Shown: one piece after another, positions 29,429-60,218 of the stretch
Layout of the letters: each line of letters starts with the position of its first letter
Numbering within the stretch: position 1 is the first letter of the stretch
Assembly (NCBI GenBank): GCA_003249555.1
Contig: QKIQ01000024.1
Location: 353-64,352 of the forward strand
DNA: 64,000 nt
Direction: 5' to 3'
Source of the DNA: Clostridia bacterium
Lineage (GTDB): Bacteria > Bacillota > Clostridia > Christensenellales > SZUA-584
The notes under the pieces: generated by a model
Database searches by the model: none
What the model was told of the DNA's origin: nothing
What the model saw: only the letters and a program-made list of their open reading frames with translations
Translations under genes and position numbers: made by a program

Positions 29429-32400
29429 ATGCTGGGCAAATACGGCAATCACATACTAGACGACTTTACGCTCTCACGGCAGGAACTTCTCAAAGTTGCC
29501 GCTGACTTATCGCTCAATGATAAGGTTTATACAAGAAAGGTAGAGGAAAAGCTTTTTAATTTATCAGAAGAACGGCGCCAGATCGAGAGCGCCTATTTGG
29601 CCGCACGTCAGAGAAAATATAAAGGCATGGAGCTGCCGCCGCTGTCGGAATGGTTTTACGATAACCGTTTTTTGTTTATGGAGCAGATCAAACAGCTCGA
29701 AACACAAAAAAGTGGCTGCCGGCTGCCTCATTTCAGATCCGGCCGTTTTGCGCATACGCCGCGAAGCCTTGTTCTTGCAACGCTTCTATTGGGGCACAGT
29801 GCGCTTCATGTATCAGTCGGCAGCATGCAAGAATTCATTGAGGTCTATCAGAAGGAAGCTGAGCTTAACTGGGGAGAGCTTTGGGCGTTTATCGATATGC
29901 TCAAAGTAGCGCTGCTGCGTGCCGTGGCCGTGCTTGCCAACGAAAGTGTCAAGACAATCGCAATGTGGAACCGCGCGGACAGATTTTGCGGACTCGTGGA
30001 AAACGATATGATGGCAGAGCAGGGGAGCCTTAATCAGTATAGAAGCGTGCTTGCCAATCAAGATTTTCTTGAACATTTGATGGTAATGTTGCGCGATAGC
30101 CCGCATGCCGCATCCGTGATGGCTCGTATAAACGACAGGCTCTGGCCTCAAGGTCAAAAGGCCGAGCATTTGATAAAAAAGGCACATGCTGCGCAAACAC
30201 ATCACATACACCATATCTCCAATGCTATTGCATCGCTTCGCATGCTTGCCAAGGTGAATTTTGAGCCTGTATTTGAAAGCATATCGGCTGTTCATAAGTA
30301 CTTAAGCGCAGACTCCGATTATAAGGGGATGGATTCTCATTCGCGTGAGTTCTACCGCAAAGGTATATCAGCGATTGCCGCTGCGCTTCACGCGCCTGAA
30401 CCCGCGGTGGCAAAGGCCGCGGCAGACCTTGCCGCCCACACGGGCGCCCATGTGGGCGAGTACATAGTCGGTTCAAAAAAACGTGAGATGTACGCAAGAT
30501 TCGGCAGGATGCCATTCAAGGTGCGTTTTAATGAATTTTTCAGAAGACACATGCTGCTGCTATATGTGGGCGGCGCGGCCGTTTCGACGCTTGTGAGCGC
30601 TGTGCTTCTCACACTGCCGTTGTTTTTAAAATATCCTCCTGTATACGGCATCATCGGATTCATCATCAGCCTGATTCCTATATATACCGTTGCCATTGCG
30701 ATCAGCAATCGCTTGTTAACGCTGATTAACAAACCGACGCTGATACCAAAAATGGCGCTTAACGAGGGTATTCCTGACGACTGTGCCACGATGGTGGTGA
30801 TTCCCGCACTTGTTACAGGCGAAGAGGACGGGAAAGAACAGCTTGAAAAAATGGAGGTTTACTGGGCGGCAAACCAGCAAAACAACCTGTATTTCACGCT
30901 GCTGAGTGATTTCAAAGAAGATAAGAATGAAATTGCGGCGCAGGATGAGCAGATGATCGAAAGCATGGAACGCATTATCAGCCGTCTAAACGAACAATAC
31001 GGCAGGACGCTTTTTTTCTATGCGCAGCGCAAACGAACGCTCATTAAGGAAAGCGGACGGTACGGCGGCTACGAGCGCAAGCGCGGCGCACTGATGGATT
31101 TTTGCATGATGCTGGATGGAGACCCGTCGGCATTTATTCATGTGACCAAGGGTTTACCTGTACACATAAAATACGTGATTACGCTGGATTCGGATACTGA
31201 GCTTGGGCGTGACGCCGCAGTTAAACTGGTGGGTGCCATGGAGCATCCGCTGAACAGACCTGTGATTGACACGGAGACGAACACCGTCAAAACGGGATTT
31301 GGCATTATGCAGCCGCGTATCGGAGTGGATGTGGTAAGCGCCGCAAAGACGCGATTCTCTTTAGTGTTTTCCGGCAAGGGCGGCCTGGATACGTATGCGA
31401 GCGCTGCTTCGGACGTTTATCAAGACGGCTTCGGCACCGGTATATTCACAGGCAAGGGTATATTCAACAAAGATGTGTATGTGAGCGTGCTTAAAGACGC
31501 GTTTCCCGACAATAGCATATTAAGCCATGATCTGCTGGAGGGCAGTTATATTCGCTGTGGGCTGCTGACGGATGTGGTGCTGATGGACGGATGCCCCGCA
31601 CGGTACACGGCGTGGGCGAGCCGGCAGCACAGATGGGTGCGGGGCGATTGGCAGCTGCTGCCGTGGCTGCGGCGAACGGTACCCACCAAGATTGGCAAAG
31701 CCAAGAATCCGCTCTCAAAGCTCGCAAAGTATCAGATGTTCGACAACATGCGGCGCAGTCTATCGGTGCCGCTTAGCTTTTTGGTGATTTTGCTGTCACA
31801 GACCGCATTTTATAGCTCGGCAATATTTTGGTTCATATCGGGTATTTTGCCGCTTTTCATTGACGGCATACTCGATTTTTTGTTGCGCATGCTGACGCTT
31901 ATCAGAAACGCGGGCAAAGGTTCTACGTTTAAAGACGTATGGTATGAAACCAAAACCATGTTTGAGCAGGCGTTTTACAAATTCGCGTTTCTGCCATATG
32001 AAACCTATCTCATGCTTGATGCGGTAATCCGCAGCCTTGTCCGTCTTGTGACGAGACGCCATCTTTTGGAGTGGGTAACGGCTGCCGAAGGCGACAGAAA
32101 AGCCAAGATGGGAGTCGCACATTATTGGAAAAACATGGCCGCGGCGCCCTTGCTGGCTGCTGCTTTGTATACGCTGTCTATCGCGACCACCCATAGCTTT
32201 TCGCTTATCGCGTTTTTGGTATCCGGTGTGTGGTTTTTCGCGCCATCAATTGCCCTTGCGATCAGCCGACCCCGCCACGTTAAAATTTATGCGCTGGATG
32301 TTGCTCAAAAGGCATATCTTGAGGGTGTGGCGCTTAAGACTTGGCGTTTTTTTGAGGAAGTCTCTGAGGAAGATGAATATTACTGGCCGCCGGATAATTA

Positions 32401-35400
32401 TCAGCAAAGCCCCTCAAAGGGCATCGCTAAAAGGACATCGCCGACCAATGTGGCATACGGGATGGGTGCCGCCATATGCGCTTATTATTTTGGCTTTATC
32501 ACGTTGGCAGAAGCGGTTAAAAGGCTCGAAAGAATTGTGGCGGGCATTGAAAAAGCAGACAAGTGGCAGGGGCATCTTTATAATTGGTACGATATCGAAA
32601 ACTTAGAGCCACTTGAGCCACGGTATGTATCATCGGTGGACAACGGCAATTTGATCTGTTATCTCGTGGTGGCGGACGAGGCGCTCAAAGAGATGCTGGC
32701 CTCGCCACTGTCGTCATATATGCATCTGGGCTTGCAGACAATCTCTCGTGAATCCGGGCGTGAGCTGTCATTTAATATCAATAACGACATATTCAATGCG
32801 GTGAATGTGCTGGAACTGATCGGTGAAGGTGAAGGCGATGTATTTACGTTAAAGAGGCAGATCATATCGCTGTTTTCGCGTTTCGCATCTTGGGCAGGCG
32901 TGATGGATGCTTTTCCCTCGAAAAGGGTGCATGAATATGTTGAGCCGACACGTGCAATGCGTGAAAAGCTGCGGCGTGTGTCCGTTATCGGATACGCTGA
33001 CGTTTTTCACAGTGTGCTCGAACCGCTGTCCGAAATTTTCGAAAAGGCCAAGCTGAATGAACACAACGACGTTCTTGAGTGGATCACGCGTATGGAGACG
33101 GCGCTTGGCGAAAGCTATGTGGCATGCCGAAGGCTGACGCAGCGTGTGAACCGGCTGCGCCGAAGGATTGCGGCACTCATTGACACCACGGATTTTTCAC
33201 ATCTTTATGACGAGGAAAAAGGTCTTTTCTCAATCGGGTTTGATATTCGGAACGGCATACTCAGTGATTCGCATTATGATCTGCTGGCATCCGAAGCGCG
33301 GCAGACAAGCTTTATTGCGATCGCAAAAGGGGACGTACCCGAAAAGCACTGGTTCCGACTATCTCGTCCACTGACCATTGCGGGAGAAAGCCGTGTGCTG
33401 CTCTCATGGAGCGGCACGATGTTTGAGTATCTGATGCCGCTTATCATCATGAAAAGCTACGACAACACGCTGCTCGCGGAGACATACAAGTCCGTAGTGG
33501 ATATGCAGCAGAATTACGGCGAACAGCGGCGTGTGCCGTGGGGTGTATCCGAATCGGGGTACTATGCGTTTGACATGCACATGAATTATCAGTACAAGGC
33601 GTTCGGCGTACCGGGCCTTGGGCTCAAATCCGGTCTTGTGCGCGAATCTGTAATTGCTCCTTACGCCACGGTGCTTGCGCTCAATGTGAACCCAAGGGCG
33701 GCGCTTGCCAATATGCTGCGGCTGGAGAAGATGGACGCGTACGGACGCTACGGCTTTTTTGAAGCGATAGACTACACGACATCGCGGATGCACAAAGGTA
33801 AGAAAAAACACATCATAAAGAGCTATATGGCGCATCATCAGGGCATGATTCTCTCGTCGATGCTCAATAGCCTGCAAGATGGACGCATGCAGAAGCTTTT
33901 CCACAGCGCCACCTGCGTGAAGGCGACGGAACTGCTGCTTAAAGAAAAGGTGCCGCCGCGCAGTGTGACGTTGAGCCTCGGTGAGAAGCCAAACGAGACG
34001 CAGGCGTTTGCGGAGGAAATTCAAGCGACGCGTATTTATAAGTCGTTTTCGAAGTATCCCGAAGCACATTTTTTATCCAATGGCAGTTATACTGTCATGC
34101 TCACGCAATACGGCACAGGCTATTCGATGTGCAGGGGACGTATGGTTACACGGTGGGAAAGCGACGTACTGCGCCGCGCGCCGGGTATCCATACATACAT
34201 AAAAAATATGGATACAGGTGCGGTTTGGTCGGTGGCGTTTCTGCCCACCTGTATGCAGGCAGATCAGGAGCGTGTGCAGTTTGAACCTTACAAAGCGTCA
34301 TTTTTCCGTCAGGTTGGCGGCATTGAAACAACGCTTGAGGTTTGCGTATCACCCGAATGCGATTTGGAGATTAGAAATCTGGAAATAAAGAACAACACCG
34401 ATACAGCTTTAAACCTTTCGGTGCTTTGTGTGTATTCACCTGCGATGTCGCCGGATAAGGATTTTGAGGCGCATCCTGCGTTTGCGGAGCTGTTTATCGA
34501 CACAATTGAAGATATGGACAGCCGTACGGTATTTGCACGGCGCAGGGGAAAACCTGTTTGCAGTGCGATGAAAGCGTGTTTCGACGGTAATATCGAATTC
34601 TTAACGGATAGAACATACATATTCGGACGACGAAATGTGTTTGGCGTCCCCTCGTGCATGGCCGAGCAGCCCTCGGAGCACGATGTTTCCCGTGCTGTAG
34701 GTATTTGCGGACACATGAGAATACCCTCAGGGAAGATGGCTTTTGCCGCGTTTGCCATAGCGATGGCCGACAGCAAGAAACGAGTTTCGGAGTGCCTTGC
34801 GGATATCACGGGGGAAGAGGATATCAAACGTGTTTTCCATCTGGCGTGGACGCACGCGCAGGTAGAGATGCGATTCTTAAAGCTCAAAAACATGCAGGCT
34901 AATCTGTTCCAGCAGATTGCTTCGCGTACGGTGATCCGTGTGCCGTCCGTCTGCCCGATGGACGAGCAAGCAGGAGGGTTGTCGTCGCTCTGGAAATTCG
35001 GCATTTCGGGCGATCTTCCGATTATCTGTCTCTTTGCCGGCAGCTTCGACCATATAGATACCGTCAAAACGGTGGCTAAAGCAGTGGAATACATGAGTCT
35101 TAAGCAAATTGCCGCAGAACTCGTGATTTTCTACAGCCATACCGGCGCGTATATTGACCCACAACGCGACATGATCAAAGAACTGGAACAAGCCGCGGCG
35201 GGACGACCACATAACCGTGTCTATGCGCTCAATGCCGATGAAATAGATACGGGGGATAAATCGGCCATTGCAACGGCGGCCTGTCTTGTGCTCTATGACG
35301 ATACGTCACTTTCAGAGCAATTAAAGCTGCCCGTTCTGACACGTCCATACTGGGTGTTTGAAAAAGCCGCTGAGGACCGGTCCCGCAGCCGACCGGTTAG

Positions 35401-37753
35401 GATGCTCAAGGCGTTTGACAATACGCAAGGCGGCTTTATCCGAAACGGTACCGAATATTGCATCGATGTGCATGGCAACACGCCGCTGCCATGGAGCAAT
35501 CTGTTGGCGGGGCGTACACTGGGCAGCTTAATCAGTGCGGGCGGCGGTGGCTACACATGGGCGGAAAACGCGCGTATGCTGCGGCTGACGCCTTTTCGAA
35601 ACGACGCGCTGACGGATGTACCCGGAGAAGGCGTGCTTGTGAGAAGCGACAGGACGGGTAAAGCGTTCAGTATGGCGCCGGATATGTACGCCGAGGGCAG
35701 ATACCGCGTGATCCACGGTTTCGGTTATACGATATTTGAACGATACGGTGGCATCGAGACGCGTATTGCATATTTTGTGGATGAGAAATTGCCGGTGAAA
35801 GCAGGGCTTATTAGCCTTATTAACACCACGGAACGGGAAGAGACGCTTTCCGTATACTGCTATGCCGAACCTGTGCTTGCCGCAAAGGAATCCGGCGGAA
35901 TCCGCGCACGTTATAAGGGAGACCGTCTTGAAGCGTTATCGCCGTTTTCTTCGGCATGTCGGGCGATGTTCCTCGCGATGCCGGGTCAGAAGGTGAATTA
36001 TACGGCATCGGCACGCGAGTTTTTCGGCGTACCGGGGCATAACATATGGCCCGAAACGCTGAAAACGCAGGCTTTGTCCAATAGCGACGGCTGTGGTGCT
36101 TCGCTGCTTGCTCTTCAGGCGCATGTCACACTAAAGCCCGGAGAAAGCCAGATGCTGACGATCCTTACGGGTTATGGTGATGAGCAGGCTATCACGCATG
36201 TGCTGGAGACATATGGCTCAATGCCAAAGGCGCAGGGTAAGCTAGAAGCAACAAGAGCACATTGGGAAAGCCTCGTTGGCAGTATCAAGGTAACATCGCG
36301 CAATAAATCGTTTGATATGATTACCAATGGCTGGCTTCTGTACCAGACGTATGCCTCGCGGCTTTGGGGACGTACGGGCTATTATCAATCCGGCGGCGCT
36401 TTCGGATTCCGCGACCAGCTTCAGGATGTGCTGGCCATCATGTATACCGATTCGTCTGAGGCAAGCGCGCATATTATTAAATGCGCACAGAGGCAGTTCT
36501 TTGAAGGCGATGTGCTGCACTGGTGGCATGAGCCCGCCAACGGTGTGCGTACATATATTACGGACGATAAGCTGTTTCTGCCATACGTCGCCTGCGAATA
36601 CGAGCGTATTACGGGCGATATGAGTCTATTTGATGAAAGTGTGCCATATCTTGTAAGCAAGCCGATACCCGAAGGCCGCCACGATCTTTACGAAGCGTTT
36701 GAGCCAAGTGATACGAGCGAAAGCATATTCTTGCACTGCGCGCGCGCTATCGATTCGGCACTGAAATTCGGGGAGCACGGTTTGCCGCTTATGGGCGCGG
36801 GCGACTGGAACGACGGTATGGATAAGGTGGGCATCGGGGGCAGGGGAGAGAGTGTCTGGCTCGCGTTTTTGCTTGTGGAAGTACTGCGGCTCTTTTCTGA
36901 TCTATGCAGACTTCGGAGTGAAACGGCGCTTGCGGAGCGATATGATGCGACAAGGCAAGAGCTTATGCTCAATGTTGAGCGCAATGCGTGGGACGGCGAA
37001 TGGTATATGCGCGCGTTCTTTGACGACGGCACGCCTCTCGGAAGCAGTACATCGCCTGAATGCCGTATCGATATTATATCGCAGGCCTGGGCCGTATGGG
37101 CGGGTGCTGTGCGTGCGCGCCGTGCGTTTGCGTCTGCGGAGGAACATCTTGTGATGCGCGAGGAGGGCATCATCCGTCTGCTCGCGCCGGCATTTGACAA
37201 ATGGGACAAAGACCCAGGTTACATTAAATCGTATCTGCCGGGTGTACGGGAAAACGGCGGACAGTATACACACGCGGCAGTCTGGTTCGTGATCGCGGCG
37301 GCAAAGCTGCGGCGCAAGGACGACGCGATGGCGCTTTTCCAAATGCTTAACCCGATCAACCACACGCGTACGCCCGAGGGCGTGGCCAAGTATAAAGGCG
37401 AGCCGTATGTCATGGCGGCGGACGTTTATTACACGGACGGGCACCACGGACGCGCGGGTTGGACGTGGTACACAGGCAGCGCAGGCTGGATGTATCAGGC
37501 GGCTGTCGTTTATCTGCTCGGAATGCGCATAGAACGCGGGATGCTTTCCGTATATCCTTGTGTCCCCGATGACTTTGGGCGGTATACGATCACGTACAAA
37601 AAGGACGGTGCGCAGTATATCATCACGGTGGATGTGACGCCGGGCTATCAGGGCAGCGCGTCGCTGCGTATGGATGGCAGCCCTGCCGTCAAAACGCTTC
37701 TGCTCGATAAGAAGGATGGTGTTCATCAAATTGACGCTTGTTGGCAGACATGA
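29429..37753 (+). CDS. cgs: Cyclic beta-1,2-glucan synthase-like giant protein (GT84-type glycosyltransferase, central alpha-barrel/cyclisation-like region, C-terminal GH94 phosphorylase-like domain)
   Basis: 2774 aa. TM clusters at residues about 373-432 and 780-945. GT motifs ITLDSDTE and QHRWVRGDWQ. Central WSGTMFEYLMP. C-terminal GGGYTW, YYQSGGAFGFRDQLQD, GAGDWNDGMD, GGQYTHAAVW. Confidence 0.85.
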   Translation: MLGKYGNHILDDFTLSRQELLKVAADLSLNDKVYTRKVEEKLFNLSEERRQIESAYLAARQRKYKGMELPPLSEWFYDNRFLFMEQIKQLETQKSGCRLPHFRSGRFAHTPRSLVLATLLLGHSALHVSVGSMQEFIEVYQKEAELNWGELWAFIDMLKVALLRAVAVLANESVKTIAMWNRADRFCGLVENDMMAEQGSLNQYRSVLANQDFLEHLMVMLRDSPHAASVMARINDRLWPQGQKAEHLIKKAHAAQTHHIHHISNAIASLRMLAKVNFEPVFESISAVHKYLSADSDYKGMDSHSREFYRKGISAIAAALHAPEPAVAKAAADLAAHTGAHVGEYIVGSKKREMYARFGRMPFKVRFNEFFRRHMLLLYVGGAAVSTLVSAVLLTLPLFLKYPPVYGIIGFIISLIPIYTVAIAISNRLLTLINKPTLIPKMALNEGIPDDCATMVVIPALVTGEEDGKEQLEKMEVYWAANQQNNLYFTLLSDFKEDKNEIAAQDEQMIESMERIISRLNEQYGRTLFFYAQRKRTLIKESGRYGGYERKRGALMDFCMMLDGDPSAFIHVTKGLPVHIKYVITLDSDTELGRDAAVKLVGAMEHPLNRPVIDTETNTVKTGFGIMQPRIGVDVVSAAKTRFSLVFSGKGGLDTYASAASDVYQDGFGTGIFTGKGIFNKDVYVSVLKDAFPDNSILSHDLLEGSYIRCGLLTDVVLMDGCPARYTAWASRQHRWVRGDWQLLPWLRRTVPTKIGKAKNPLSKLAKYQMFDNMRRSLSVPLSFLVILLSQTAFYSSAIFWFISGILPLFIDGILDFLLRMLTLIRNAGKGSTFKDVWYETKTMFEQAFYKFAFLPYETYLMLDAVIRSLVRLVTRRHLLEWVTAAEGDRKAKMGVAHYWKNMAAAPLLAAALYTLSIATTHSFSLIAFLVSGVWFFAPSIALAISRPRHVKIYALDVAQKAYLEGVALKTWRFFEEVSEEDEYYWPPDNYQQSPSKGIAKRTSPTNVAYGMGAAICAYYFGFITLAEAVKRLERIVAGIEKADKWQGHLYNWYDIENLEPLEPRYVSSVDNGNLICYLVVADEALKEMLASPLSSYMHLGLQTISRESGRELSFNINNDIFNAVNVLELIGEGEGDVFTLKRQIISLFSRFASWAGVMDAFPSKRVHEYVEPTRAMREKLRRVSVIGYADVFHSVLEPLSEIFEKAKLNEHNDVLEWITRMETALGESYVACRRLTQRVNRLRRRIAALIDTTDFSHLYDEEKGLFSIGFDIRNGILSDSHYDLLASEARQTSFIAIAKGDVPEKHWFRLSRPLTIAGESRVLLSWSGTMFEYLMPLIIMKSYDNTLLAETYKSVVDMQQNYGEQRRVPWGVSESGYYAFDMHMNYQYKAFGVPGLGLKSGLVRESVIAPYATVLALNVNPRAALANMLRLEKMDAYGRYGFFEAIDYTTSRMHKGKKKHIIKSYMAHHQGMILSSMLNSLQDGRMQKLFHSATCVKATELLLKEKVPPRSVTLSLGEKPNETQAFAEEIQATRIYKSFSKYPEAHFLSNGSYTVMLTQYGTGYSMCRGRMVTRWESDVLRRAPGIHTYIKNMDTGAVWSVAFLPTCMQADQERVQFEPYKASFFRQVGGIETTLEVCVSPECDLEIRNLEIKNNTDTALNLSVLCVYSPAMSPDKDFEAHPAFAELFIDTIEDMDSRTVFARRRGKPVCSAMKACFDGNIEFLTDRTYIFGRRNVFGVPSCMAEQPSEHDVSRAVGICGHMRIPSGKMAFAAFAIAMADSKKRVSECLADITGEEDIKRVFHLAWTHAQVEMRFLKLKNMQANLFQQIASRTVIRVPSVCPMDEQAGGLSSLWKFGISGDLPIICLFAGSFDHIDTVKTVAKAVEYMSLKQIAAELVIFYSHTGAYIDPQRDMIKELEQAAAGRPHNRVYALNADEIDTGDKSAIATAACLVLYDDTSLSEQLKLPVLTRPYWVFEKAAEDRSRSRPVRMLKAFDNTQGGFIRNGTEYCIDVHGNTPLPWSNLLAGRTLGSLISAGGGGYTWAENARMLRLTPFRNDALTDVPGEGVLVRSDRTGKAFSMAPDMYAEGRYRVIHGFGYTIFERYGGIETRIAYFVDEKLPVKAGLISLINTTEREETLSVYCYAEPVLAAKESGGIRARYKGDRLEALSPFSSACRAMFLAMPGQKVNYTASAREFFGVPGHNIWPETLKTQALSNSDGCGASLLALQAHVTLKPGESQMLTILTGYGDEQAITHVLETYGSMPKAQGKLEATRAHWESLVGSIKVTSRNKSFDMITNGWLLYQTYASRLWGRTGYYQSGGAFGFRDQLQDVLAIMYTDSSEASAHIIKCAQRQFFEGDVLHWWHEPANGVRTYITDDKLFLPYVACEYERITGDMSLFDESVPYLVSKPIPEGRHDLYEAFEPSDTSESIFLHCARAIDSALKFGEHGLPLMGAGDWNDGMDKVGIGGRGESVWLAFLLVEVLRLFSDLCRLRSETALAERYDATRQELMLNVERNAWDGEWYMRAFFDDGTPLGSSTSPECRIDIISQAWAVWAGAVRARRAFASAEEHLVMREEGIIRLLAPAFDKWDKDPGYIKSYLPGVRENGGQYTHAAVWFVIAAAKLRRKDDAMALFQMLNPINHTRTPEGVAKYKGEPYVMAADVYYTDGHHGRAGWTWYTGSAGWMYQAAVVYLLGMRIERGMLSVYPCVPDDFGRYTITYKKDGAQYIITVDVTPGYQGSASLRMDGSPAVKTLLLDKKDGVHQIDACWQT

Positions 37754-51706: not shown

Positions 51707-52681
51707 ATGTTTTGTACGAAATGCGGTCAAAGCAATCCTGAAGGCGCAGCTTTTTGTTCTTCCTGCGGCAACGCATTGTCGGCGGTGCCGGAAGCGGCTC
51801 AACAAGCGCCTATACCGCAGGAACAGAATGTGCCCGCCCCGCAGCCGCCCGAAGCGCCGCCGAATCAGCAGGGCTTTAATTATGTAGCGATGCAGCAGCC
51901 GTATCCGCCTCAGGGTGTTTACTTGAAGAAGAAAAGCCGTGCGGGTCTTATTGCCGGGCTCATTATCGGCGGCACCTTGCTAATCGCGGCAGTGGCTGTG
52001 CTGTTGTTTGTTTGGCCAGGGTTTCTCACACAAAGCCCACCGGTCAAAGGATTCTGGTACAGCGAAGACCGTGGAGAGGCGCTGGAATTTAAAAACAACA
52101 ACACGATACGTGTCTATACTGTTGATAATGAATTTAAGGGTGATTACACATATGAGAGCGCACAAGGTTTGGGTCGCATCACTGTGGAGGACAAAGACTA
52201 TCGGTTTGCAGTGACTGAGGACGGACTTTTTGTGGAGAGTATTGGCAACTACAAGCAAGCTGATGCTAACTTTGACGTCGATGATTTTGTTGGCGATATG
52301 TGGTCGGCATTTAATGAATATGATCTGAGCAATCAGGAGAATCATCTGCTGAACAGCGATCCCGTTGACAATCTGGATCCCGGCAATATGACTGATATTT
52401 CAGGCATTCAGGGGCTGTGGTATGAGACGACCGGTTATGGAGGGACGCTTGAGTTTTACAATGACGGGACATACGACATGACCATTGTGGGCTATGTTTT
52501 TAAAGGGACATACGACTATGATGCTTCTTTAGGAACAGGAACGCTCTATGAACATGATACGGGGGAAACTTATCCGCTAACCGTGTCAAACGGAATACTG
52601 GAAACGGATGGTTATCAGTATACGGCCGAGTATGTGGAGCAGTATGATTGGAGCAGCGACCCTGAAAACCTTCTAAGCTAA
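51707..52681 (+). CDS. Zinc-ribbon / single-TM protein with duplicated lipocalin-like ectodomain
   Basis: CTKC-x10-CSSC, Pro/Gln linker, TM, then two similar units (GFWYSE..LEFKNNNT..KGDYTY and GLWYET..LEFYNDGT..KGTYDY). Confidence 0.7.
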   Translation: MFCTKCGQSNPEGAAFCSSCGNALSAVPEAAQQAPIPQEQNVPAPQPPEAPPNQQGFNYVAMQQPYPPQGVYLKKKSRAGLIAGLIIGGTLLIAAVAVLLFVWPGFLTQSPPVKGFWYSEDRGEALEFKNNNTIRVYTVDNEFKGDYTYESAQGLGRITVEDKDYRFAVTEDGLFVESIGNYKQADANFDVDDFVGDMWSAFNEYDLSNQENHLLNSDPVDNLDPGNMTDISGIQGLWYETTGYGGTLEFYNDGTYDMTIVGYVFKGTYDYDASLGTGTLYEHDTGETYPLTVSNGILETDGYQYTAEYVEQYDWSSDPENLLS

Positions 52682-52760: not shown

Positions 52761-52793
52761 TGATTGGATATAAAAACAAAAGAGGAGGATGCC

Positions 52794-53654
52794 GTGAAGG
52801 CATTTATTGATTATATATCATCATATTATCCGGAAAATATGAGGCCGCTTTTTTTTTCGGGAAGGTCGGTAGCAATCACGCGTATTAATGCATTTCTTGG
52901 CGGGAACACCCTGAAAACCGGCCATTTTTACCACATTGTTTCGCTGACAGACAATGCGCCGCCATTAATTGACAGGGAGCAAGTTTTTCGGTACGGAAAA
53001 GAGTTTCTTGTGATGCTGCCGCCCGAACGGGAGTATACAATTCAAGGCGTGTTTGAATGCTGCGGCTGTCCGCAATACTATCTCATTGTTACAAAATCGG
53101 TGATGGAGCGTATTGCCAAAGAGTTTAACGGTGTTGGATTTGACGGGCGCATCATGGCCCGCAGCATTAAAAATCAGACAGCGGACATTATTCAAAGAAT
53201 TGAGGATGAGCTTGCTGGCAAGGCGTTTGGTTATGAAGCCGTTACGCATCATCTGGTTTCCGTTCTTGTGGCTCATATGCTTCGGGGCGATAATGCACAG
53301 TGTGCCTTGGCGGAAGATATGGCCATCAGTCAAGTGTGCGAATATATTCATGCGTACTTTGATTCGGTTATCAGCATAGATGAGCTTGCATCCATCGCCA
53401 ATATGAGCAAATACCATTTTCTAAGAGAGTTCAAGAAGGCAATGGGATTAACGCCCTACAGTTATATACAAGGCCAGAGATTAAACAAAGCAAAGGAACT
53501 GCTATTAAGCACAGACCATTCGGTTTCTGATATCGCGCGGCTGTGCGGGTTTGTGAATGCGTCACATTTTTCTTACGCCACCAGGAGACACTTCGGCAAG
53601 ACGCCGACCGAGCTGAGAATTTCAAAAAGCAATATCAAGACAGAAAATCGATAA
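52794..53654 (+). CDS. AraC-family transcriptional regulator
   Basis: C-terminal double HTH (SIDELASIANMSKYHFLREFKKAMGLTPYSY...SDIARLCGFVNASHFSYATRRHFGKTP). GTG start behind AGAGGAGG. Confidence 0.9.
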   Translation: MKAFIDYISSYYPENMRPLFFSGRSVAITRINAFLGGNTLKTGHFYHIVSLTDNAPPLIDREQVFRYGKEFLVMLPPEREYTIQGVFECCGCPQYYLIVTKSVMERIAKEFNGVGFDGRIMARSIKNQTADIIQRIEDELAGKAFGYEAVTHHLVSVLVAHMLRGDNAQCALAEDMAISQVCEYIHAYFDSVISIDELASIANMSKYHFLREFKKAMGLTPYSYIQGQRLNKAKELLLSTDHSVSDIARLCGFVNASHFSYATRRHFGKTPTELRISKSNIKTENR

Positions 53655-53753: not shown

Positions 53754-53887
53754 GTTGATGAGAGGCTGTATTTATAATCTATCCCCATCTCCCTGGCAGT
53801 TTTCAGCTTGAAAGCCGCCATTCTTTTTTTGTAGGCAATTGTTTGTTGGCGTTGGAAAACAATGGCTCATTTGCAATGGTGTATCTG

Positions 53888-53916
53888 TTGTCTTTTACAT
53901 CTAAGCGTGGTACAAT
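53888..53916 (+). promoter_or_regulatory. Promoter of the CotH gene (twin of the promoter at 57087)
   Basis: TTGTCT, 17-nt spacer, TACAAT. Confidence 0.6.
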
Positions 53917-53978
53917 CAGTCGTGTTATCTGTACATATAAAGTCAGTTGCACTATTTTAAGCGGGGGGAGTGTGAGCC

Positions 53979-56900
53979 TTGAGAAGATTAAAAAACTTTG
54001 TAGTCATCATCATCGCGGCAGCTTTGTGCGCCGGGATTTTAATATTTGTGTTAAACGAACAGGGAAATGGCGGTACCGGTACTCCCGCTATATCTGGTTC
54101 TGTGGTTATCAATGAGTTTATGGCGTCCAACGGGGGATGCCTGATTGATGACAAGGGCGACAAAAGCGATTGGGTTGAAATATTCAATCCAAGCAGTGAG
54201 GCCGTTAATCTTTCCGGGATGGGGCTTTCCGATGATAAAACGGAAGTGAAATGGGCATTTCCCGGTGTGACATTGGAAGCAGGTGGCTACATAGTTGTTT
54301 TTGCGTCCGGCAATACGCAAACGGATACGAACGGTGTCTTGCATGCAAGCTTTAAACTGAGTGCGGACAGCGGCGGTGTTTATTTGACGGATACTGCGGG
54401 AAAGACCATTGATGAGGTCGAGTACAAAGAACAGGTAAAGAACGTTTCGGCAGGCAGGCAAGTGGACGATATGTCGGTATGGACCACCTTTGACAGCCCG
54501 ACGCCGGGTTACTCAAACGATGAGGCCGGTGCTCAGGCGTTTGAGTCGAGCCGTTATGCGCCGGATTCCGCATTGCTGATAACCGAGGTCATGGCGGCCA
54601 ATCAGACAACGCTGACAGACAACAACGGTATTTATAGTGACTATATCGAAATATACAACGCAGGTACAGAACCAGCGAATCTTGCAGGCTATGGTCTGTC
54701 GGACGATCCGCAAAATGTGCTGGATTGGAAATTCCCCGATGTAACGATACAGCCGGGGGCTTATCTCGTTGTGTTCGCATCCGGTGCGGACAAAAAAGCA
54801 ACAGACATTGAAAAGGGAGCGATTCATTCTAGCTTTGGCATCTCGTCCTACCAGGAAGTGATGACGCTGGCTTCGCCAACAGGACTGATACTCGACCAAG
54901 TGACAGTTTCGGAATCTCAGGCAGATATGGCATACGCGCGAACACTGGGGGAAGGCGGCCTATACATAGACGAATGGGGCTCGTCAAACAAACCGTCTCC
55001 GGGATATCCCAACACGGATGACGGGTATCAGCAGTTTATCGCAGCCAATCCCTTGGCGCTCGGAGACATCGTCATCAGCGAGGTGATGACCTCGAATTCG
55101 CAGTTTCTTACCGAAGATAACGGTGAAACATACGACTGGATCGAGCTTTACAACCGCGGCAGTCAAGCGGTCAATCTTGCGGGCTACGGGCTGACGGACA
55201 ACACGGGCAACCCTGCGAAGTTCCGCTTGCCAGACAAAACGCTGGCGCCGGGAGAGTATTATACGGTGCTCGCGTCAGGGCTAGCAGGCGATGAAAGCAT
55301 AAAAAAAAACTATGTACATACCAGCTTTAAGCTGAGCGCAAGCGGAGAAGTGCTCGCGCTTTTTAATGCTGACGGCGTATTGCAGGACAAGCTTACAATC
55401 GGCAGCTTGCCGCGCGGCTTATCAGTGGGCAGAATGGCGCAGCAGGACGGCGTTTTTTATTTTACCGAGCCGACGCCCGCGGCGGCGAATATTAACCCAA
55501 ACAGCGGCTTTGTGGCAACGCCCATGCCGAATATTCCGGCGGGAAGCTATCCATCCGCTCAGACGGTGACACTTTCAAACGGCACGCAGGACGCATCCAT
55601 ATATTACACCACGGACGGTACAGTTCCCACCACGAGCTCTACGCCATATACAGGGCCTATTGCAATGAACGAAACGGGCATGATTCGGGCGCGCGCGTTC
55701 AAGGATGGGTACCTCGACAGCGAAACACAGACGGCAACTTATGTCATAGGGGCAACGCATACGTTGCCCGTAATTTCACTTGTGACAGACCCCGATAACC
55801 TGGTTGATCCGGAAACGGGTATATATGTGTTAGGACCCAATGCTCAGCTGATAGAAGGCCATACGGAGCACTATCAAGTCGCTAACTATCTGGAGGAAGG
55901 CAGGGAATCCGAACGCCCTGCATCGTTTGAGGTTTTTGATGAAAGCGGTCACAGGGTGTTTGAACAGGATGTTGCCATCCGTATACAAGGCGGCTTCAGT
56001 CGAGACAATCAACAAAAATCCTTTGCTGTTTACGCACGCAGCGAGTATGGCAAGGGCTCGATGGCATACCCGTTTTTTGATAATTTGCCGTTTGAGGAAT
56101 ACAAATCGCTCGTGCTGAGAAACGGCGGGCAGGACCAGTGGTATGCCAAAATCAAGGAAGCGGTGATCCTCAACATCCTGAACGGAAAGACAAATTGTCT
56201 GACTCAGAGTTATAAGACGTATGTGGTGTATTTGAACGGTGAGTATTGGGGCGTTTATTTTCTTGAAGAAAAACGAAACGAAGATTTTATTGCTCAGCAT
56301 GAAGAGGTGGAAGAACCGAACGGCATCAATGTCCTGTCTGGTTCAGGTTTGAACTATGTGTTAAACGGGACGAACGAAGAATACAAGAAATTATATGAAT
56401 TCATAACCACGCATGATATGTCCGTGAAAGAAAACCATGAGTATCTGGCGGAGAGGTTGGATACCGACAGCTTTTTGGATCTGATGGTCAATCAGGTTTA
56501 TGTGGCGAACTCGGATTATTACAATCTGCAGTTTTATCAGGTGCCCGGTGGCAAATGGAAACAGATATTTTATGATATGTGCTGGGCATTTCGGGAGCCC
56601 GATCATTCGACATTATCGCGGCGCAGAGACTCTGATGTGGGCGGTTCCACGATGTTCAACGCTCTGTTGGCATACGAACCATGGAAAATGGCGTTTGTCG
56701 AGCGCTTTGCTTGGTCGATGGAAAATTTCTATACCACGGATAACCTCATCAGTGTGATTGACGAGGTGGCCGCTTCGGTGGCGGCGGAAATGCCTGTGGA
56801 GCGCGCTAAGTTCACCGATTATAAACGGGATTGGGATACGGAGGTGGAATCGATGCGCACGTTCGCCAAGGAGCGCCCATATCAGGTGCTGTTACAGATA

Positions 56901-57017
56901 AAAAGCGTGCTGGGCGTGTCGGGATCAACGCTTCGTGGTTACTTTAGTTTTACCGATGAACAGATGAAAAGCGGGTTTAATCTGTCGGACGAGCAGATGC
57001 AAAACCTTTTTGGTTAA
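53979..57017 (+). CDS. Membrane-anchored protein with three lamin-tail domains, a chitobiase/hexosaminidase-C-like Ig domain and a CotH atypical kinase domain
   Basis: Signal anchor FVVIIIAAALCAGILIFVL. Three LTD repeats (INEFMASN..DWVEIFN, ITEVMAAN..DYIEIYN, ISEVMTSN..DWIELYN). YYTTDG...ARAF. A CotH region of about 400 aa (IRIQGG..SF.., LRNGGQD, YWGVYFLEEK). Confidence 0.85.
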   Translation: MRRLKNFVVIIIAAALCAGILIFVLNEQGNGGTGTPAISGSVVINEFMASNGGCLIDDKGDKSDWVEIFNPSSEAVNLSGMGLSDDKTEVKWAFPGVTLEAGGYIVVFASGNTQTDTNGVLHASFKLSADSGGVYLTDTAGKTIDEVEYKEQVKNVSAGRQVDDMSVWTTFDSPTPGYSNDEAGAQAFESSRYAPDSALLITEVMAANQTTLTDNNGIYSDYIEIYNAGTEPANLAGYGLSDDPQNVLDWKFPDVTIQPGAYLVVFASGADKKATDIEKGAIHSSFGISSYQEVMTLASPTGLILDQVTVSESQADMAYARTLGEGGLYIDEWGSSNKPSPGYPNTDDGYQQFIAANPLALGDIVISEVMTSNSQFLTEDNGETYDWIELYNRGSQAVNLAGYGLTDNTGNPAKFRLPDKTLAPGEYYTVLASGLAGDESIKKNYVHTSFKLSASGEVLALFNADGVLQDKLTIGSLPRGLSVGRMAQQDGVFYFTEPTPAAANINPNSGFVATPMPNIPAGSYPSAQTVTLSNGTQDASIYYTTDGTVPTTSSTPYTGPIAMNETGMIRARAFKDGYLDSETQTATYVIGATHTLPVISLVTDPDNLVDPETGIYVLGPNAQLIEGHTEHYQVANYLEEGRESERPASFEVFDESGHRVFEQDVAIRIQGGFSRDNQQKSFAVYARSEYGKGSMAYPFFDNLPFEEYKSLVLRNGGQDQWYAKIKEAVILNILNGKTNCLTQSYKTYVVYLNGEYWGVYFLEEKRNEDFIAQHEEVEEPNGINVLSGSGLNYVLNGTNEEYKKLYEFITTHDMSVKENHEYLAERLDTDSFLDLMVNQVYVANSDYYNLQFYQVPGGKWKQIFYDMCWAFREPDHSTLSRRRDSDVGGSTMFNALLAYEPWKMAFVERFAWSMENFYTTDNLISVIDEVAASVAAEMPVERAKFTDYKRDWDTEVESMRTFAKERPYQVLLQIKSVLGVSGSTLRGYFSFTDEQMKSGFNLSDEQMQNLFG

Positions 57018-57086
57018 CGTCATATAGTTAATCGGGTAGGCAGGCCTTGCCTGATTACTTAATATGGAAATATACGTGTAAAATTG

Positions 57087-57115
57087 TTGTCTTTTGCAAG
57101 CAAGCGTGATACAAT
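57087..57115 (+). promoter_or_regulatory. Promoter of the VTC/DUF4956 operon (twin of the promoter at 53888)
   Basis: TTGTCT, 17-nt spacer, TACAAT. Confidence 0.6.
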
Positions 57116-57255
57116 CATTCGAGGTCATTTTACATGGCGTTAACAAAGCTTTTAGAGCAGAATTTTTTTGCGTTTTTTATAAGGCCGATCGGTAATGATG
57201 CATTGTAAAGCTTGCTGAACGCTAATAAACCAGCATTCGGGAATGCCCTAAAAGA

Positions 57256-58515
57256 ATGAAAGACGGAAAAATGTCAAGAAGAGATGAAGAGATTTTCAGA
57301 AAACTGAAGAAAGAAAAGCCGCTTTTAAAGCGCAAGAATATTCAGCCTTTGTCAGCTGGAGATTTCAGGAAAAGCGATTTATCGTTGGACAGACCGAAGG
57401 TTGCGTCAAAGCGCGTAGGGTCAAAGCCAAACGAACTCAATGTCTTTTCTGCTGTGTCAAAAAGTGCAGCCAGCCCTAAGCAGGCGGCCAAACGTGGGGC
57501 GTCGCTTGCCAGCCGTTATAACCGCACGAGGCAAAGCGACGAAACTCAGCCGGAGCTCAGCGTGTTCACCCAAGAGGAACGCTTGGAAAAACCTGCAAAT
57601 CCGGCTGTTAAGACGCGCGGACAAGCGCCGTCTGCCAAGCAGGCAAGAACAAGCAAAACGGCCGCTGCAAAATCGCCGCAAGCTGACGGACTCAGCATTT
57701 TTACTGAACAGACAGTAACAAAAAAGGCTCCGCAGGTGCTTCATGCCGACAGGGGATACAGCCCGTCTGCGCCGATGATGCGCGTTGACCAGCACGATTT
57801 TGATTATTTGCAGGTTAATGCGTCTCACGCAAAGCCGGATTTTCGTCATGAGCTGAAATACTATATCAACTATCATGATTATGTATTGTTAAAAAACACG
57901 ATTAAAGCGCTGCTGAGTATCGACCATAACGCGAACACAGATGGCCATTATCATATTCGCAGCCTTTATTTTGACGATGTGTATGAGACAGCGCTTAAAG
58001 ATAAGGTTGCGGGAACCGATGAACGCAGTAAATACCGTGTTCGGATTTACAATTACAGCGACAGCGTCATCAAATTTGAAAAGAAGATCAAGCGCGGGCA
58101 GTTTATTTCCAAAGTCAGTATCGGGCTTTCGCGCGATGAGTGCGACAGTATCATAGCCGGCAATTACGACTTTCTCGCTGTAAGACCTGAGCCGCTGGCA
58201 TCGGAAATCTATTTACAGATGAAAAACAATGCGCTAAAACCGCGCGTAATTGTGGATTACTGGCGCGAAGCGTATGTGTCGCCGTTTGAGAACGTTCGCG
58301 TCACATTCGACAAAGACATAAAGGGTGGGCTTTGGCTCACGGATATCTTTAACGCGAAAGCGCCCACGATGCCCATGCTGGATGAAGGTGTGATGGTGCT
58401 TGAGGTGAAGTTCAACCGCTATATGCCCGAGTTTATTAAAACCGTGCTCAGCAATGTAAACGCGGCGCAAAGAAGCGCGATATCAAAATATGTATTATGC
58501 AGAAAGTTTGACTAG
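57256..58515 (+). CDS. VTC-domain (triphosphate tunnel, polyphosphate-polymerase-like) protein with a basic disordered N-terminal extension of about 190 aa
   Basis: C-terminal strands RHELKY, IRSLYFDD, KYRVRIY, FEKKIK, VDYWRE, RVTFD, VLEVKF. The start is uncertain (weak RBS; an internal ATG lies at 57775). Confidence 0.75.
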   Translation: MKDGKMSRRDEEIFRKLKKEKPLLKRKNIQPLSAGDFRKSDLSLDRPKVASKRVGSKPNELNVFSAVSKSAASPKQAAKRGASLASRYNRTRQSDETQPELSVFTQEERLEKPANPAVKTRGQAPSAKQARTSKTAAAKSPQADGLSIFTEQTVTKKAPQVLHADRGYSPSAPMMRVDQHDFDYLQVNASHAKPDFRHELKYYINYHDYVLLKNTIKALLSIDHNANTDGHYHIRSLYFDDVYETALKDKVAGTDERSKYRVRIYNYSDSVIKFEKKIKRGQFISKVSIGLSRDECDSIIAGNYDFLAVRPEPLASEIYLQMKNNALKPRVIVDYWREAYVSPFENVRVTFDKDIKGGLWLTDIFNAKAPTMPMLDEGVMVLEVKFNRYMPEFIKTVLSNVNAAQRSAISKYVLCRKFD

Positions 58516-58530
58516 GAGGATATATAAAAA

Positions 58531-59202
58531 ATGGGTGACATTATCAAGCAAAGCGTCTGGGAAAAGTTTCAATTGGCTGGAGATATAACGCTTGCCGGTA
58601 TACTGATTACTGTTGGGCTTGCGTTTGTACTGGGGCTGTTCGTTTACTTTATTTATAGGTTGACCTTTTCTGGTGTGATTTTAGTAAAAAGCTTTGGGAC
58701 GTCCTTGGTCATGCTGTCTATGGTGACGTCAATGATTATCTCGGTGGTATCTTCAAGCATTGCGCTGACATTCGGTATGGTCGGCGCGTTGTCTATCGTG
58801 CGTTTCAGAACGGCGGTGAAAGATCCGATGGATACCATTTACATGTTTTGGGCAATTGGCTGTGGTATCACACTGGGAGCGCAGTTTTATACGCAGGCGC
58901 TTGTCGGCTCTGCAATCATCGGCGTTTTTCTTCTGGTATGGAATCTGTTCAAGTCCAAAAAGAATTTTCCGTTCATGTTTGTCATCCGTTTTGATGAAGC
59001 TTGCAAGAAAGAAGTACAGGCTGTGCTGCGCAAAATGCCTGCGGGCAGGCTGAAATCAAAAATCGTGTCTGAAGGCATGGTTGAGCTGACCATAGAAATG
59101 AACATCAAGGAAAGCGAAGCGGGCATGATCGATGCATTTTCCTCTATACCCGGCGTACATAATGCGTCTTTGATCAGCTATAAAGGCGACGTGGTGTCGT
59201 AA
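58531..59202 (+). CDS. DUF4956-family membrane protein
   Basis: Four predicted TM helices, conserved LSIVRFRTAVKDPMD segment, cytoplasmic C-terminal alpha/beta domain. 15 nt downstream of the VTC gene. Confidence 0.75.
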   Translation: MGDIIKQSVWEKFQLAGDITLAGILITVGLAFVLGLFVYFIYRLTFSGVILVKSFGTSLVMLSMVTSMIISVVSSSIALTFGMVGALSIVRFRTAVKDPMDTIYMFWAIGCGITLGAQFYTQALVGSAIIGVFLLVWNLFKSKKNFPFMFVIRFDEACKKEVQAVLRKMPAGRLKSKIVSEGMVELTIEMNIKESEAGMIDAFSSIPGVHNASLISYKGDVVS

Positions 59203-59220
59203 AATCAGACGTATCGCATA

Positions 59221-59252
59221 TTTTAAAACCGCTCTATGTAGGGCGGTTTTTG
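59221..59252. terminator. Bidirectional Rho-independent terminator
   Basis: AAAACCGC/GCGGTTTT stem flanked by TTTT on the left and T-runs on the right, between convergent genes. Confidence 0.75.
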
Positions 59253-59271: not shown

Positions 59272-59943
59272 TCATTTAGAAAGCTCGGCGGTATATTGAA
59301 AATCCTCGGTCTGCCTGATGATTATTTTTTGAGTGTACGCTTCATCGTTACCGGTATACCCCGTAACGATCATTTCACAGCGGCGGATGGCTGCGCCCTG
59401 TTTGTCCAGCGGTGACCAATATATCGTATCGCCATTGGATAAGATATAAGTCTTGCCTCTTTCCTTTACCGTATAGTCGGGAGGCTCCCATGTGATAATG
59501 GATCCGGTGTCTACATCGATGCGTATGGCGTCTGCATTAATGCCTGCATTGCTTTTAGGTACGGATATTACAAAAGGGAACCCAGGCACATCGCTTTGCG
59601 CAGATGAGTATTCGTTTAGCGTAAAAGCTTCTCCGGGCTGAAGAACAGTCTCTTCCCACTGCGCTCCGTATGCAGTCACGGCTAAGATACCTGTCGTGGA
59701 TGCGTGTGCGGCGGTTGTGACAACGGATGGAGCGTCGTCGGTGTGAAGCCCGGTTTCGGCGGGAACGGCTGGGCTAATCGCATTTAGAAGCATGGGCAGT
59801 GTCAGCCCAAGCACACAAATCAACACGGCGGCCGCAACACCCATAACAAGCCTTGTTCTTATGCTCATGGGCTCTCCTTGAGGTTCTTTGGTATAGCCTG
59901 ATTCATTTAAGTCCGTAAAATCATTATAATCATCCTTTTTCAT
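59272..59943 (-). CDS. Hypothetical single-pass membrane protein
   Basis: ATG at 59943 behind GGGAGGA. One TM (LVMGVAAAVLICVLGLTLPMLL) then an ectodomain of about 150 aa with no motif I recognise. Confidence 0.6.
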   Translation of the reverse strand: MKKDDYNDFTDLNESGYTKEPQGEPMSIRTRLVMGVAAAVLICVLGLTLPMLLNAISPAVPAETGLHTDDAPSVVTTAAHASTTGILAVTAYGAQWEETVLQPGEAFTLNEYSSAQSDVPGFPFVISVPKSNAGINADAIRIDVDTGSIITWEPPDYTVKERGKTYILSNGDTIYWSPLDKQGAAIRRCEMIVTGYTGNDEAYTQKIIIRQTEDFQYTAELSK

Positions 59944-60218
59944 GTGACATCCTCCCTGCCTCAATTCTATATGTCCCGCTGTGTTGTTGCAAGCCTTGCA
60001 TTTTTTCTCATGACAATCATCCCGGCGCACCAATGTATTTGCGCAGGGATATGTCTATTCTATATACGGTGATTTTCACACGATATACAAACACATATAC
60101 GCGCAAATAAATGTTCCCCACCATATATTGTATTGTGAAGAATGGCACATACAATTTTTATTTTTTTCTTGAATCAATATGCAAAAATAAGCAGGAATTA
60201 TTGAATTGACAACGAATA

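Follow-up and report, generated by a model that had tools for sequence, protein, structure and literature searches.

What function is served by a polyphosphate polymerase-like enzyme that is encoded between a membrane protein and a kinase that faces the outside of the cell? The question is raised by three adjacent genes in a 64,000-nucleotide stretch of a Clostridia bacterium genome (contig QKIQ01000024.1), the whole of which is referred to below as the window. The genes encode a CotH-family protein, a protein with a VTC-type triphosphate-tunnel domain and a DUF4956 protein. Bacterial polyphosphate (polyP) is attributed to PPK1 and PPK2. Our analysis indicates that the trio is a real and widespread module that has been noted in the literature, and that the window holds a stand-alone variant of it. 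The three genes were defined by open reading frame (ORF) calls and Pfam as follows.

53979 to 57017, plus strand: cotH-family gene, 1012 aa, TTG start
57256 to 58515, plus strand: VTC-domain gene (vtc), 419 aa
58531 to 59202, plus strand: DUF4956 gene (duf4956), 223 aa

The original prediction, made from the DNA alone, had described these three ORFs at these positions as co-directional, with the third starting 15 nt downstream of vtc. Both points were borne out, and the GGAGGA ribosome-binding site ahead of duf4956 overlaps the vtc stop codon. Pfam also agreed with the predicted domains on all three proteins, namely three lamin-tail domains (LTDs), an Ig-like domain (CHB_HEX_C), CotH, VTC and DUF4956.

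To establish how general the arrangement is, one genome per species was scanned, which returned at least 591 genomes with a relative. The best 80 loci were searched with local hidden Markov models (HMMs), followed by Pfam scans of the neighbouring genes. DUF4956 adjoins VTC in 77 of the 80 loci and the contig ends at that point in the other three, so that the two are adjacent wherever the locus can be evaluated (77/77). This adjacency spans Clostridia and Bacilli and occurs in both orders, VTC-DUF and DUF-VTC. At least 61 of the 80 loci have CotH next to the pair, and the predicted co-occurrence of VTC and DUF4956, with or without CotH, was upheld in these loci. At least four gene orders were seen (CotH-VTC-DUF, VTC-DUF-CotH, CotH-DUF-VTC and DUF-VTC alone), and the taxa represented include Clostridia as well as the Bacilli Paenibacillus, Cohnella, Psychrobacillus, Salinibacillus and Jeotgalibacillus. 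Two plasmids also carry the trio: in Pseudobutyrivibrio it lies inside a large exopolysaccharide cluster, and in Planococcus it sits beside HEAT-repeat and glycosyltransferase genes, in the layout VTC-DUF4956-CotH-hypothetical-HEAT-glycosyltransferase. Clustering of the flanking ORFs of the 80 loci revealed no further conserved partner, and the neighbourhoods are variable beyond the trio. Within the module, VTC-DUF4956 is the core that does not vary.

The third partner is less constant. In five related genomes (L007, L009, L011, L012 and L016), the CotH position is taken by a protein with a membrane anchor and two LTDs and without the Ig-like and CotH kinase domains (358 aa in L007, positions 8827-9900). 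As judged from these sequences, the LTD-only form is a stable truncated form and not a sequencing error, because identity to the L007 protein is 47-62%.

The assignment of the central protein to the VTC family is firm. Pfam VTC (PF09359) matches aa 196-415 (E = 7e-40; 137.5 bits, cut-off 23) over positions 1-230 of the 235 in the profile, and more than 4500 homologues exist under the NCBI name 'polyphosphate polymerase domain-containing protein'. A hydrophobicity scan of the protein found no hydrophobic or membrane segment, and Pfam found no SPX match. Two parts can be told apart.

57841 to 58500, plus strand: triphosphate-tunnel (VTC/TTM) catalytic domain, aa 196-415
57256 to 57825, plus strand: N-terminal extension, aa 1-190, lineage-specific, basic and predicted to be disordered

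The AlphaFold2 model is confident over aa 190-400, with a predicted local distance difference test score (pLDDT) of 80-93 across the domain. The best 13 Foldseek matches to this model are all chains of the VTC complex (Vtc4, Vtc2 and Vtc3; E from 1e-12 to 3.5e-10), with Vtc4 first, and hydrolase-type tunnel enzymes (ygiF/CYTH) follow at E of about 1e-7. A profile built from 18 bacterial VTC domains matches the Vtc4 sequence with E = 5.8e-7. This profile alignment, in which the construct numbering was corrected with R264/R266 and K200 as anchors, paired the following residues, all of them invariant.

VTC R197 with Vtc4 R196
VTC K201 with Vtc4 K200
VTC R261 with Vtc4 R264
VTC R263 with Vtc4 R266
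VTC K276 with Vtc4 R280
VTC K277 with Vtc4 K281
VTC Y335 with Vtc4 Y359
VTC R337 with Vtc4 R361
VTC R348 with Vtc4 R373
VTC E383 with Vtc4 E426
VTC K385 with Vtc4 K428

In Vtc4, cryo-electron microscopy places the triphosphate in the grip of K200, R264, R266, K281, R361, K458, S457 and Y359 and the Mn2+ ion at E426, and mutation of the triphosphate ligands lowers cellular polyP (bioRxiv 10.1101/2023.01.27.525886). The paired residues are invariant in two independent bacterial alignments, and every alignable triphosphate or Mn ligand is kept, as expected from the predicted conservation of the tunnel. The remaining ligands probably have counterparts in an invariant S410-K411-Y412 motif that lies 27 residues past E383 (the Vtc4 spacing is 31). 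A profile of the VTC C-terminus alone gave no match in the PDB, and the correspondence of S410/K411 to S457/K458 is proposed from position and invariance. The bacterial tunnel also carries invariant charged residues that are absent from Vtc4 (E199, R235, D241, R257, K259, D334 and E338), and because of these residues polymerase chemistry is likely for the domain, rather than certain.

The N-terminal extension has a different character. Its pLDDT is below 50 for most of its length, and it has a net charge of +17 and an isoelectric point (pI) of 10.2. It contains three L-x-[VI]-F motifs (LNVF at 61, LSVF at 101 and LSIF at 146) and a conserved N-terminal helix motif, R-x-D-D-D-I-F-K-K-L-K-K-E-x-P-L. 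The extension is kept in relatives P0005-P0118 and is missing from most other loci. The VTC proteins of relatives begin with 'MA..RRDDEIF', and the window offers both ATG 57256 and a second ATG at 57271 (M6). The second may be the true start, giving 414 rather than 419 aa; neither candidate is preceded by a strong ribosome-binding site.

The partner protein belongs to DUF4956 (PF16316; 40.4 bits against a cut-off of 30.6), a family that is carried by all 120 of the homologues listed for it and comprises 6241 clusters at 50% identity, nearly all of about 225 aa. The original prediction had called it a 4-TM protein. Its membrane nature stood, but the number of helices did not: the AlphaFold2 model (mean pLDDT 71) opens with a short helix, which is followed by about five membrane helices over aa 21-140 and a C-terminal beta-alpha-beta-beta-alpha-beta (ACT-like) domain over aa 145-216. 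Foldseek gave weak matches only, led by the MgtC C-terminal domain 2lqj (E = 0.011), with 7qa5 and ACT domains also found. Pfam MgtC scores 17.3 bits on the protein, below its cut-off of 31.4 (E = 0.006), and hhalign against E. coli YhiD places the motifs in register at E = 0.024 and a probability of 2%. Among the 50 Foldseek matches listed there was no Vtc1 or other VTC-complex membrane chain, and none of the 50 reached E <= 0.001; Pfam found no DUF202-type match either. DUF4956 as a relative of Vtc1 was rejected, as neither a structural (Foldseek) nor a profile (Pfam) signal was found. The original suggestion that DUF4956 supplies the Vtc membrane part in trans accordingly survives as analogy and not as homology, no relation to Vtc1 or the VTC transmembrane domain having been detected.

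Conservation within DUF4956 is concentrated in a single element of the membrane region.

58774 to 58866, plus strand: DUF4956 signature hairpin, aa 82-112, with G82, GALSI 85-89, R91, R93, K97, D101, F106, W107 and G112

Among 116 representatives with 30-51% identity to the window protein, only Y42 and the hairpin residues listed above are conserved at 95% or more, and the hairpin residues are also invariant in a second alignment (A2). Across the family as a whole, conservation of the ACT-like domain is poor whereas the charged membrane hairpin is near-invariant. If the C-terminal domain is cytoplasmic as in MgtC, the hairpin would lie at the cytoplasmic face of the membrane, and it is the obvious candidate for a functional site. 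The few long proteins among the 150 best DUF4956 representatives include no VTC fusions. One of 386 aa (P0338) joins DUF4956 to a C-terminal citrate synthase fragment, a chimera that is most likely a gene-calling or assembly artefact.

The CotH protein is built for the outside of the cell. Pfam recognizes LTDs in three stretches (E = 7e-54), CHB_HEX_C_1/Fn3_assoc at aa 520-588 and CotH (PF08757) at aa 667-967 (E = 3e-31, 109 bits). A GGGGGGAG ribosome-binding site precedes the TTG start of the gene, which encodes the following elements.

54003 to 54062, plus strand: N-terminal hydrophobic signal anchor, about aa 9-28
54096 to 55400, plus strand: three LTDs by Pfam, about aa 40-474
55755 to 56945, plus strand: CotH atypical-kinase domain, aa 593-989 by local HMM

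The protein has a single strongly hydrophobic stretch, located at the N-terminus with its centre at aa 12-20, in agreement with the predicted anchor and external location. Full-length CotH partners in the related loci open with a comparable hydrophobic stretch wherever the N-terminus lies on the contig, and for this reason the CotH partners are anchored and extracytoplasmic. The kinase-domain profile matches B. cereus CotH 5jd9 with E = 9e-30. N844, D846 and D866 are invariant among the aligned relatives (D846 and D866 are columns D254 and D274 of alignment A4), and the two aspartates align to the NFD and WD motifs of B. cereus CotH, which are 23 residues apart. They pair with D228 and D251 of B. 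subtilis CotH, which are its catalytic aspartates (PMC7821199). The catalytic aspartates of the window protein are intact.

Copies of one promoter-like box lie ahead of both cotH and vtc, and a hairpin follows duf4956.

53886 to 53936, plus strand: promoter-like box copy 1, TTGTCT-17-TGgTACAAT (extended -10), about 60 nt upstream of cotH
57085 to 57135, plus strand: promoter-like box copy 2, about 140 nt upstream of vtc
59225 to 59250, no strand assigned: hairpin with flanking A-tract and U-tract, between duf4956 and a convergent ORF at 59272-60033 (minus strand)

The boxes form a 51-nt direct repeat with 76% identity between copies, and the window has two occurrences of their 33-nt core pattern where chance predicts 0.00. 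A promoter scan also picked both, each with the same extended -10 element. Related boxes lie ahead of cotH in L003, L005, L010, L013 and L014, and the box is also found upstream of vtc in L001, L003 and L005. Because the same putative promoter box precedes both, cotH and vtc-duf4956 should be transcribed from two copies of one element and co-regulated. An Rfam scan of the long vtc leader gave no match near threshold to a riboswitch or other RNA. The hairpin was missed by a simple terminator scan and detected by RNA folding (-23.9 kcal/mol, z = -3.8); it is likely a bidirectional terminator that closes the unit.

The original prediction had taken the module to be undescribed, which proved incorrect, as it was reported in 2020 and again in 2024 as a pel accessory block. 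Genes for cotH, a 'poly-phosphate polymerase', DUF4956 and DUF4832 are accessory genes contiguous with Gram-positive pel operons (Whitfield et al. 2020; bioRxiv 10.1101/768473, PMC7112168), and the set was found in streptococci, clostridia and bifidobacteria (PMC7112168). For SIR_1594-1592 of S. intermedius, modelling gave a CotH that is secreted, a cytoplasmic enzyme resembling Vtc4 and a 4-TM protein that carries an ACT domain of the MgtC kind, in a preprint that reports the trio as never found outside pel (10.1101/2024.04.20.589940). In our analysis, no Pel-type families were found among the 20 largest ORFs upstream of the window module or its flanking genes, and none among the top neighbour families of the 80 related loci. 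Pel-independent copies are common, which goes beyond the earlier reports, as do VTC-DUF4956 as the invariant core and the reduction of the outside partner to its LTDs. The literature that we found on the module consists of the two pel papers, one C. perfringens genomics paper and incidental entries in transcriptome tables.

Our firmest inference is that VTC and DUF4956 function at the membrane as a single unit, with a triphosphate or polyphosphate as the substrate of VTC. The reading that we place first, although tentatively, is that they are a membrane-coupled pair that makes polyP and delivers it to serve the outside CotH/LTD protein. The cytoplasmic VTC protein would bind a nucleoside triphosphate with a metal ion and polymerise its gamma-phosphate, most likely into polyphosphate or a short oligophosphate. 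DUF4956, translationally coupled to VTC, would be the obligatory membrane partner that forms a physical complex with the enzyme and docks its tunnel at the membrane. A DUF4956 oligomer could then pass the product across, with the R91/R93/K97/D101 hairpin as the anion path, and the CotH protein outside would make use of what is exported, by capturing it or by taking it as a phosphoryl donor for the modification of surface proteins or glycans. Synthesis coupled to delivery is ranked first because an outside third partner is hard to explain unless the product of the pair gets outside; a cytoplasmic enzyme would be tied functionally to an outside protein only if something crosses the membrane. A more elaborate version, which we consider fairly improbable, posits a Gram-positive VTC-type machine apart from PPK1/PPK2, in which a Vtc4-like enzyme on an MgtC-like DUF4956 oligomer threads polyP or activated phosphate outward, fuelling the anchored CotH while the LTDs hold the polyanion.

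Several observations weigh against synthesis coupled to delivery. The pair occurs without an adjoining CotH in seven loci (L050, L054, L066, L069, L070, L075 and L076, of which L050 and L054 are short contigs), so that the core function does not require the outside protein. DUF4956 shows no detectable relation to the Vtc1 channel and resembles MgtC-family proteins, which act as regulators and are not known to act as channels, and no VTC-DUF4956 fusion occurs among the 150 best DUF4956 representatives. Within the tunnel, the invariant E199, D241 and E338 stand where Vtc4 has neutral T, N and T, a feature reminiscent of tunnel enzymes that hydrolyse. The ectodomain of CotH is highly acidic (pI 4.4, net charge -67), which is unexpected for a polyP binder unless cations bridge the two. 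Single-gene deletions in S. intermedius did not clearly change aggregation or the production of Pel in rich medium, and the authors hold that any polyP stays cytoplasmic (10.1101/2024.04.20.589940). Our literature search found no biochemical study of any bacterial member, consistent with the original statement that no experimental characterisation of function was known.

Some of these points favour an account in which polyP remains in the cytoplasm and serves there as a stress chaperone or as a reserve of phosphate or energy, DUF4956 is both tether and regulator of the enzyme and senses a ligand through its ACT-like domain, and CotH is merely co-regulated and acts independently. This account draws on the MgtC-like architecture of DUF4956 (the Pfam MgtC match at E = 0.006; the Foldseek ranking of the MgtC C-terminal domain first and ACT domains next), on the motif in register with E. 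coli YhiD and on the loci in which the pair lacks CotH, and the S. intermedius preprint takes the same view (10.1101/2024.04.20.589940). It nevertheless leaves unexplained the constant outside location of the third partner, the retention of an anchored LTD-only protein after loss of the kinase domain and the recurrence of the module within exopolysaccharide clusters, and the ACT-like domain is the poorly conserved part of a family whose charged membrane hairpin is near-invariant. We regard it as rather unlikely. A further possibility is that the VTC-like domain is a tunnel hydrolase or transferase, for example a tri- or polyphosphatase, or that it loads phosphate or pyrophosphate onto a lipid carrier handled by DUF4956, which would present a lipid-linked donor to CotH. 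The seven invariant charged tunnel residues without a Vtc4 counterpart speak for such chemistry, and E199 restores half of an ExExK motif, the motif typical of hydrolytic CYTH/TTM tunnel enzymes. Other TTM folds score well in Foldseek, below Vtc4. Extracytoplasmic transferases generally use lipid-linked donors, and CotH may do the same. The Pfam VTC assignment is firm at 137 bits, however, the Foldseek E-values of Vtc4, Vtc2 and Vtc3 are better than those of any hydrolase by some five orders of magnitude and all aligned Vtc4 catalytic residues are kept, and we consider hydrolysis or lipid loading improbable. That the three genes are mere syntenic neighbours of one lineage with no joint function would fit the closest relatives, which are syntenic from holA to the dcw cluster and in which the adjacency is inherited. 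Synteny alone is effectively refuted already by the locus survey and the plasmids, where the adjacency recurs across Clostridia, Bacilli and plasmids in at least four gene orders with otherwise unrelated neighbours, and by the independent discovery of the same set beside pel operons in streptococci, clostridia and bifidobacteria; we give it almost no credence.

The trio lies in core chromosome. On its upstream side are PPDK, dnaG, rpoD, comEC, holA, rpsT and genes for a zinc-ribbon protein and an AraC-family regulator, on its downstream side mraZ, rsmH and ftsL, and the predicted position between rpsT and the dcw cluster was correct. The closest genomes are uncultured Bacillota/Christensenellales metagenome-assembled genomes with identity of up to 75%, in the closest of which the entire holA-to-dcw region is syntenic. 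Recent horizontal insertion of the trio was dropped, as its GC content matches that of the flanks and its position between holA/rpsT and mraZ is common to the relatives. No NCBIfam model matched any of the three proteins, and single-sequence phmmer searches against the PDB gave nothing relevant for any of them; profiles were required. PADLOC returned no defence-system match for the three proteins, and an anti-phage reading was dropped on these zero matches.

Several neighbouring genes deserve mention in their own right. A zinc-ribbon, proline-rich single-pass membrane protein (51707-52681, plus strand) is encoded syntenically upstream of the trio in 10 related loci. The AraC-family regulator gene directly upstream (52764-53654, plus strand) has no counterpart in close relatives; its sole match is weak, in Paenibacillus locus L041, and it may be a local acquisition. 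As it is not conserved in the related loci, it was not counted in the module as a regulator of the trio. The convergent ORF at 59272-60033 (minus strand) encodes a 253-aa protein that has a single hydrophobic segment, internal in position, and drew no match from Pfam or PADLOC; a homologue lies just downstream of the trio in nine related loci, and the product is probably a lineage-specific secreted or anchored protein. Farther away, a 2774-aa ORF (29429-37753, plus strand) has GH94 catalytic, GH94 supersandwich and glucoamylase-like domains, which we take to resemble a giant cyclic beta-1,2-glucan synthase/phosphorylase, presumably unusual for a Christensenellales-like Firmicute.

Neighbours of the module elsewhere include enzymes of phosphodiester chemistry. 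Genes for a GT2-GtrA glycosyltransferase and a NAGPA phosphodiester glycosidase lie downstream of the trio in L008, L010 and L014 (for example L008:12266-14481), and the Pseudobutyrivibrio exopolysaccharide plasmid cluster that holds the trio encodes a giant phosphodiester glycosidase (L084:1-2228). These neighbours hint at phosphodiester-linked surface glycans. Proteins with a purple acid phosphatase N-terminal domain and Metallophos are encoded by 3 of the 70 upstream-neighbour ORFs scanned in the related loci, a set made up mostly of genes directly upstream of the module, and suggest a possible phosphate-related link.

If synthesis by the VTC domain is borne out, a Vtc4-type polymerase in thousands of Firmicutes lineages would be a third bacterial route to polyP beside PPK1 and PPK2. 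That VTC is strictly paired with a membrane protein and often accompanied by an outside kinase offers a testable answer to the question of which phosphoryl donor serves extracellular CotH-type kinases. Should export be correct, it would explain how extracytoplasmic bacterial kinases are fuelled in an ATP-free compartment, and it would be a second, independently assembled coupling of polyP synthesis to membrane transit. The module occurs within biofilm and exopolysaccharide loci (pel, rumen exopolysaccharide plasmids) and the C. perfringens NELoc-2 pathogenicity locus, so that what it makes could be relevant to biofilms, to the chemistry of the cell surface and to interaction with the host. Cytoplasmic storage of polyP alone would be less surprising and would still define a new bacterial polyP enzyme family.

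Among known systems, the Gram-positive pel accessory block is the closest, with the same three Pfam families in the same order, co-directional as in the window, and with a CotH predicted to be secreted, a cytoplasmic VTC protein with catalytic residues and a membrane DUF4956 protein with an ACT domain. Its fourth gene, DUF4832, is present in related locus L063. The pel accessory CotH has an FN3 domain, whereas the window protein has three LTDs and CHB_HEX_C instead, and the window VTC protein differs by its 190-aa basic disordered extension. NELoc-2 of C. perfringens encodes a CotH kinase, two VTC-domain proteins, a HEAT-repeat protein, a glycosyltransferase and a deacetylase, and so combines surface-glycan genes with CotH and VTC in a manner that the Planococcus plasmid locus resembles. 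The NELoc-2 glycan genes are absent from the window, and DUF4956 is unmentioned in the description of NELoc-2.

The individual components also have instructive relatives. MgtC-family proteins act as regulators that bind other membrane proteins and are not known to act as channels. Like DUF4956, the MgtC, YhiD and SapB proteins begin with about five membrane helices and end in an ACT-like cytoplasmic domain, the GxxGA...R...W motif aligns in register, and some DUF4956 proteins carry the JGI label 'YhiD'; the Pfam MgtC match is nonetheless sub-threshold, and the R-x-R-xxx-K-xxx-D signature is specific to DUF4956. The spore-coat serine/threonine kinase CotH of Bacillus (5jd9) has a homologous kinase domain (E = 9e-30), both of whose catalytic aspartates are kept here. 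The Bacillus enzyme acts on coat proteins in the mother-cell cytoplasm, where ATP is available, whereas the window CotH is anchored outside behind LTD and Ig-like domains. PPK1 and PPK2 would share a presumed product with the VTC pair, polyP from nucleoside triphosphate, but they have unrelated folds and no known dedicated membrane partner or outside kinase. The yeast VTC complex (Vtc4/Vtc3/Vtc1; PDB 3g3q, 8i6v and 7ytj) has the same catalytic tunnel fold as the bacterial VTC domain, and equivalents of Vtc4 K200, R264, R266, K281, Y359, R361 and E426 are kept in the window protein. Sequence identity to Vtc4 is only about 21%, and the window protein has extra acidic and basic tunnel residues and lacks both the SPX domain and the fused C-terminal three-helix membrane domain. 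Its membrane partner DUF4956 comes from an unrelated family, with no Vtc1 homologue. Overall, the parallel with the yeast complex would be one of principle, with a polymerase that requires a membrane component in both, a role that DUF4956 would fill in the bacterial pair.

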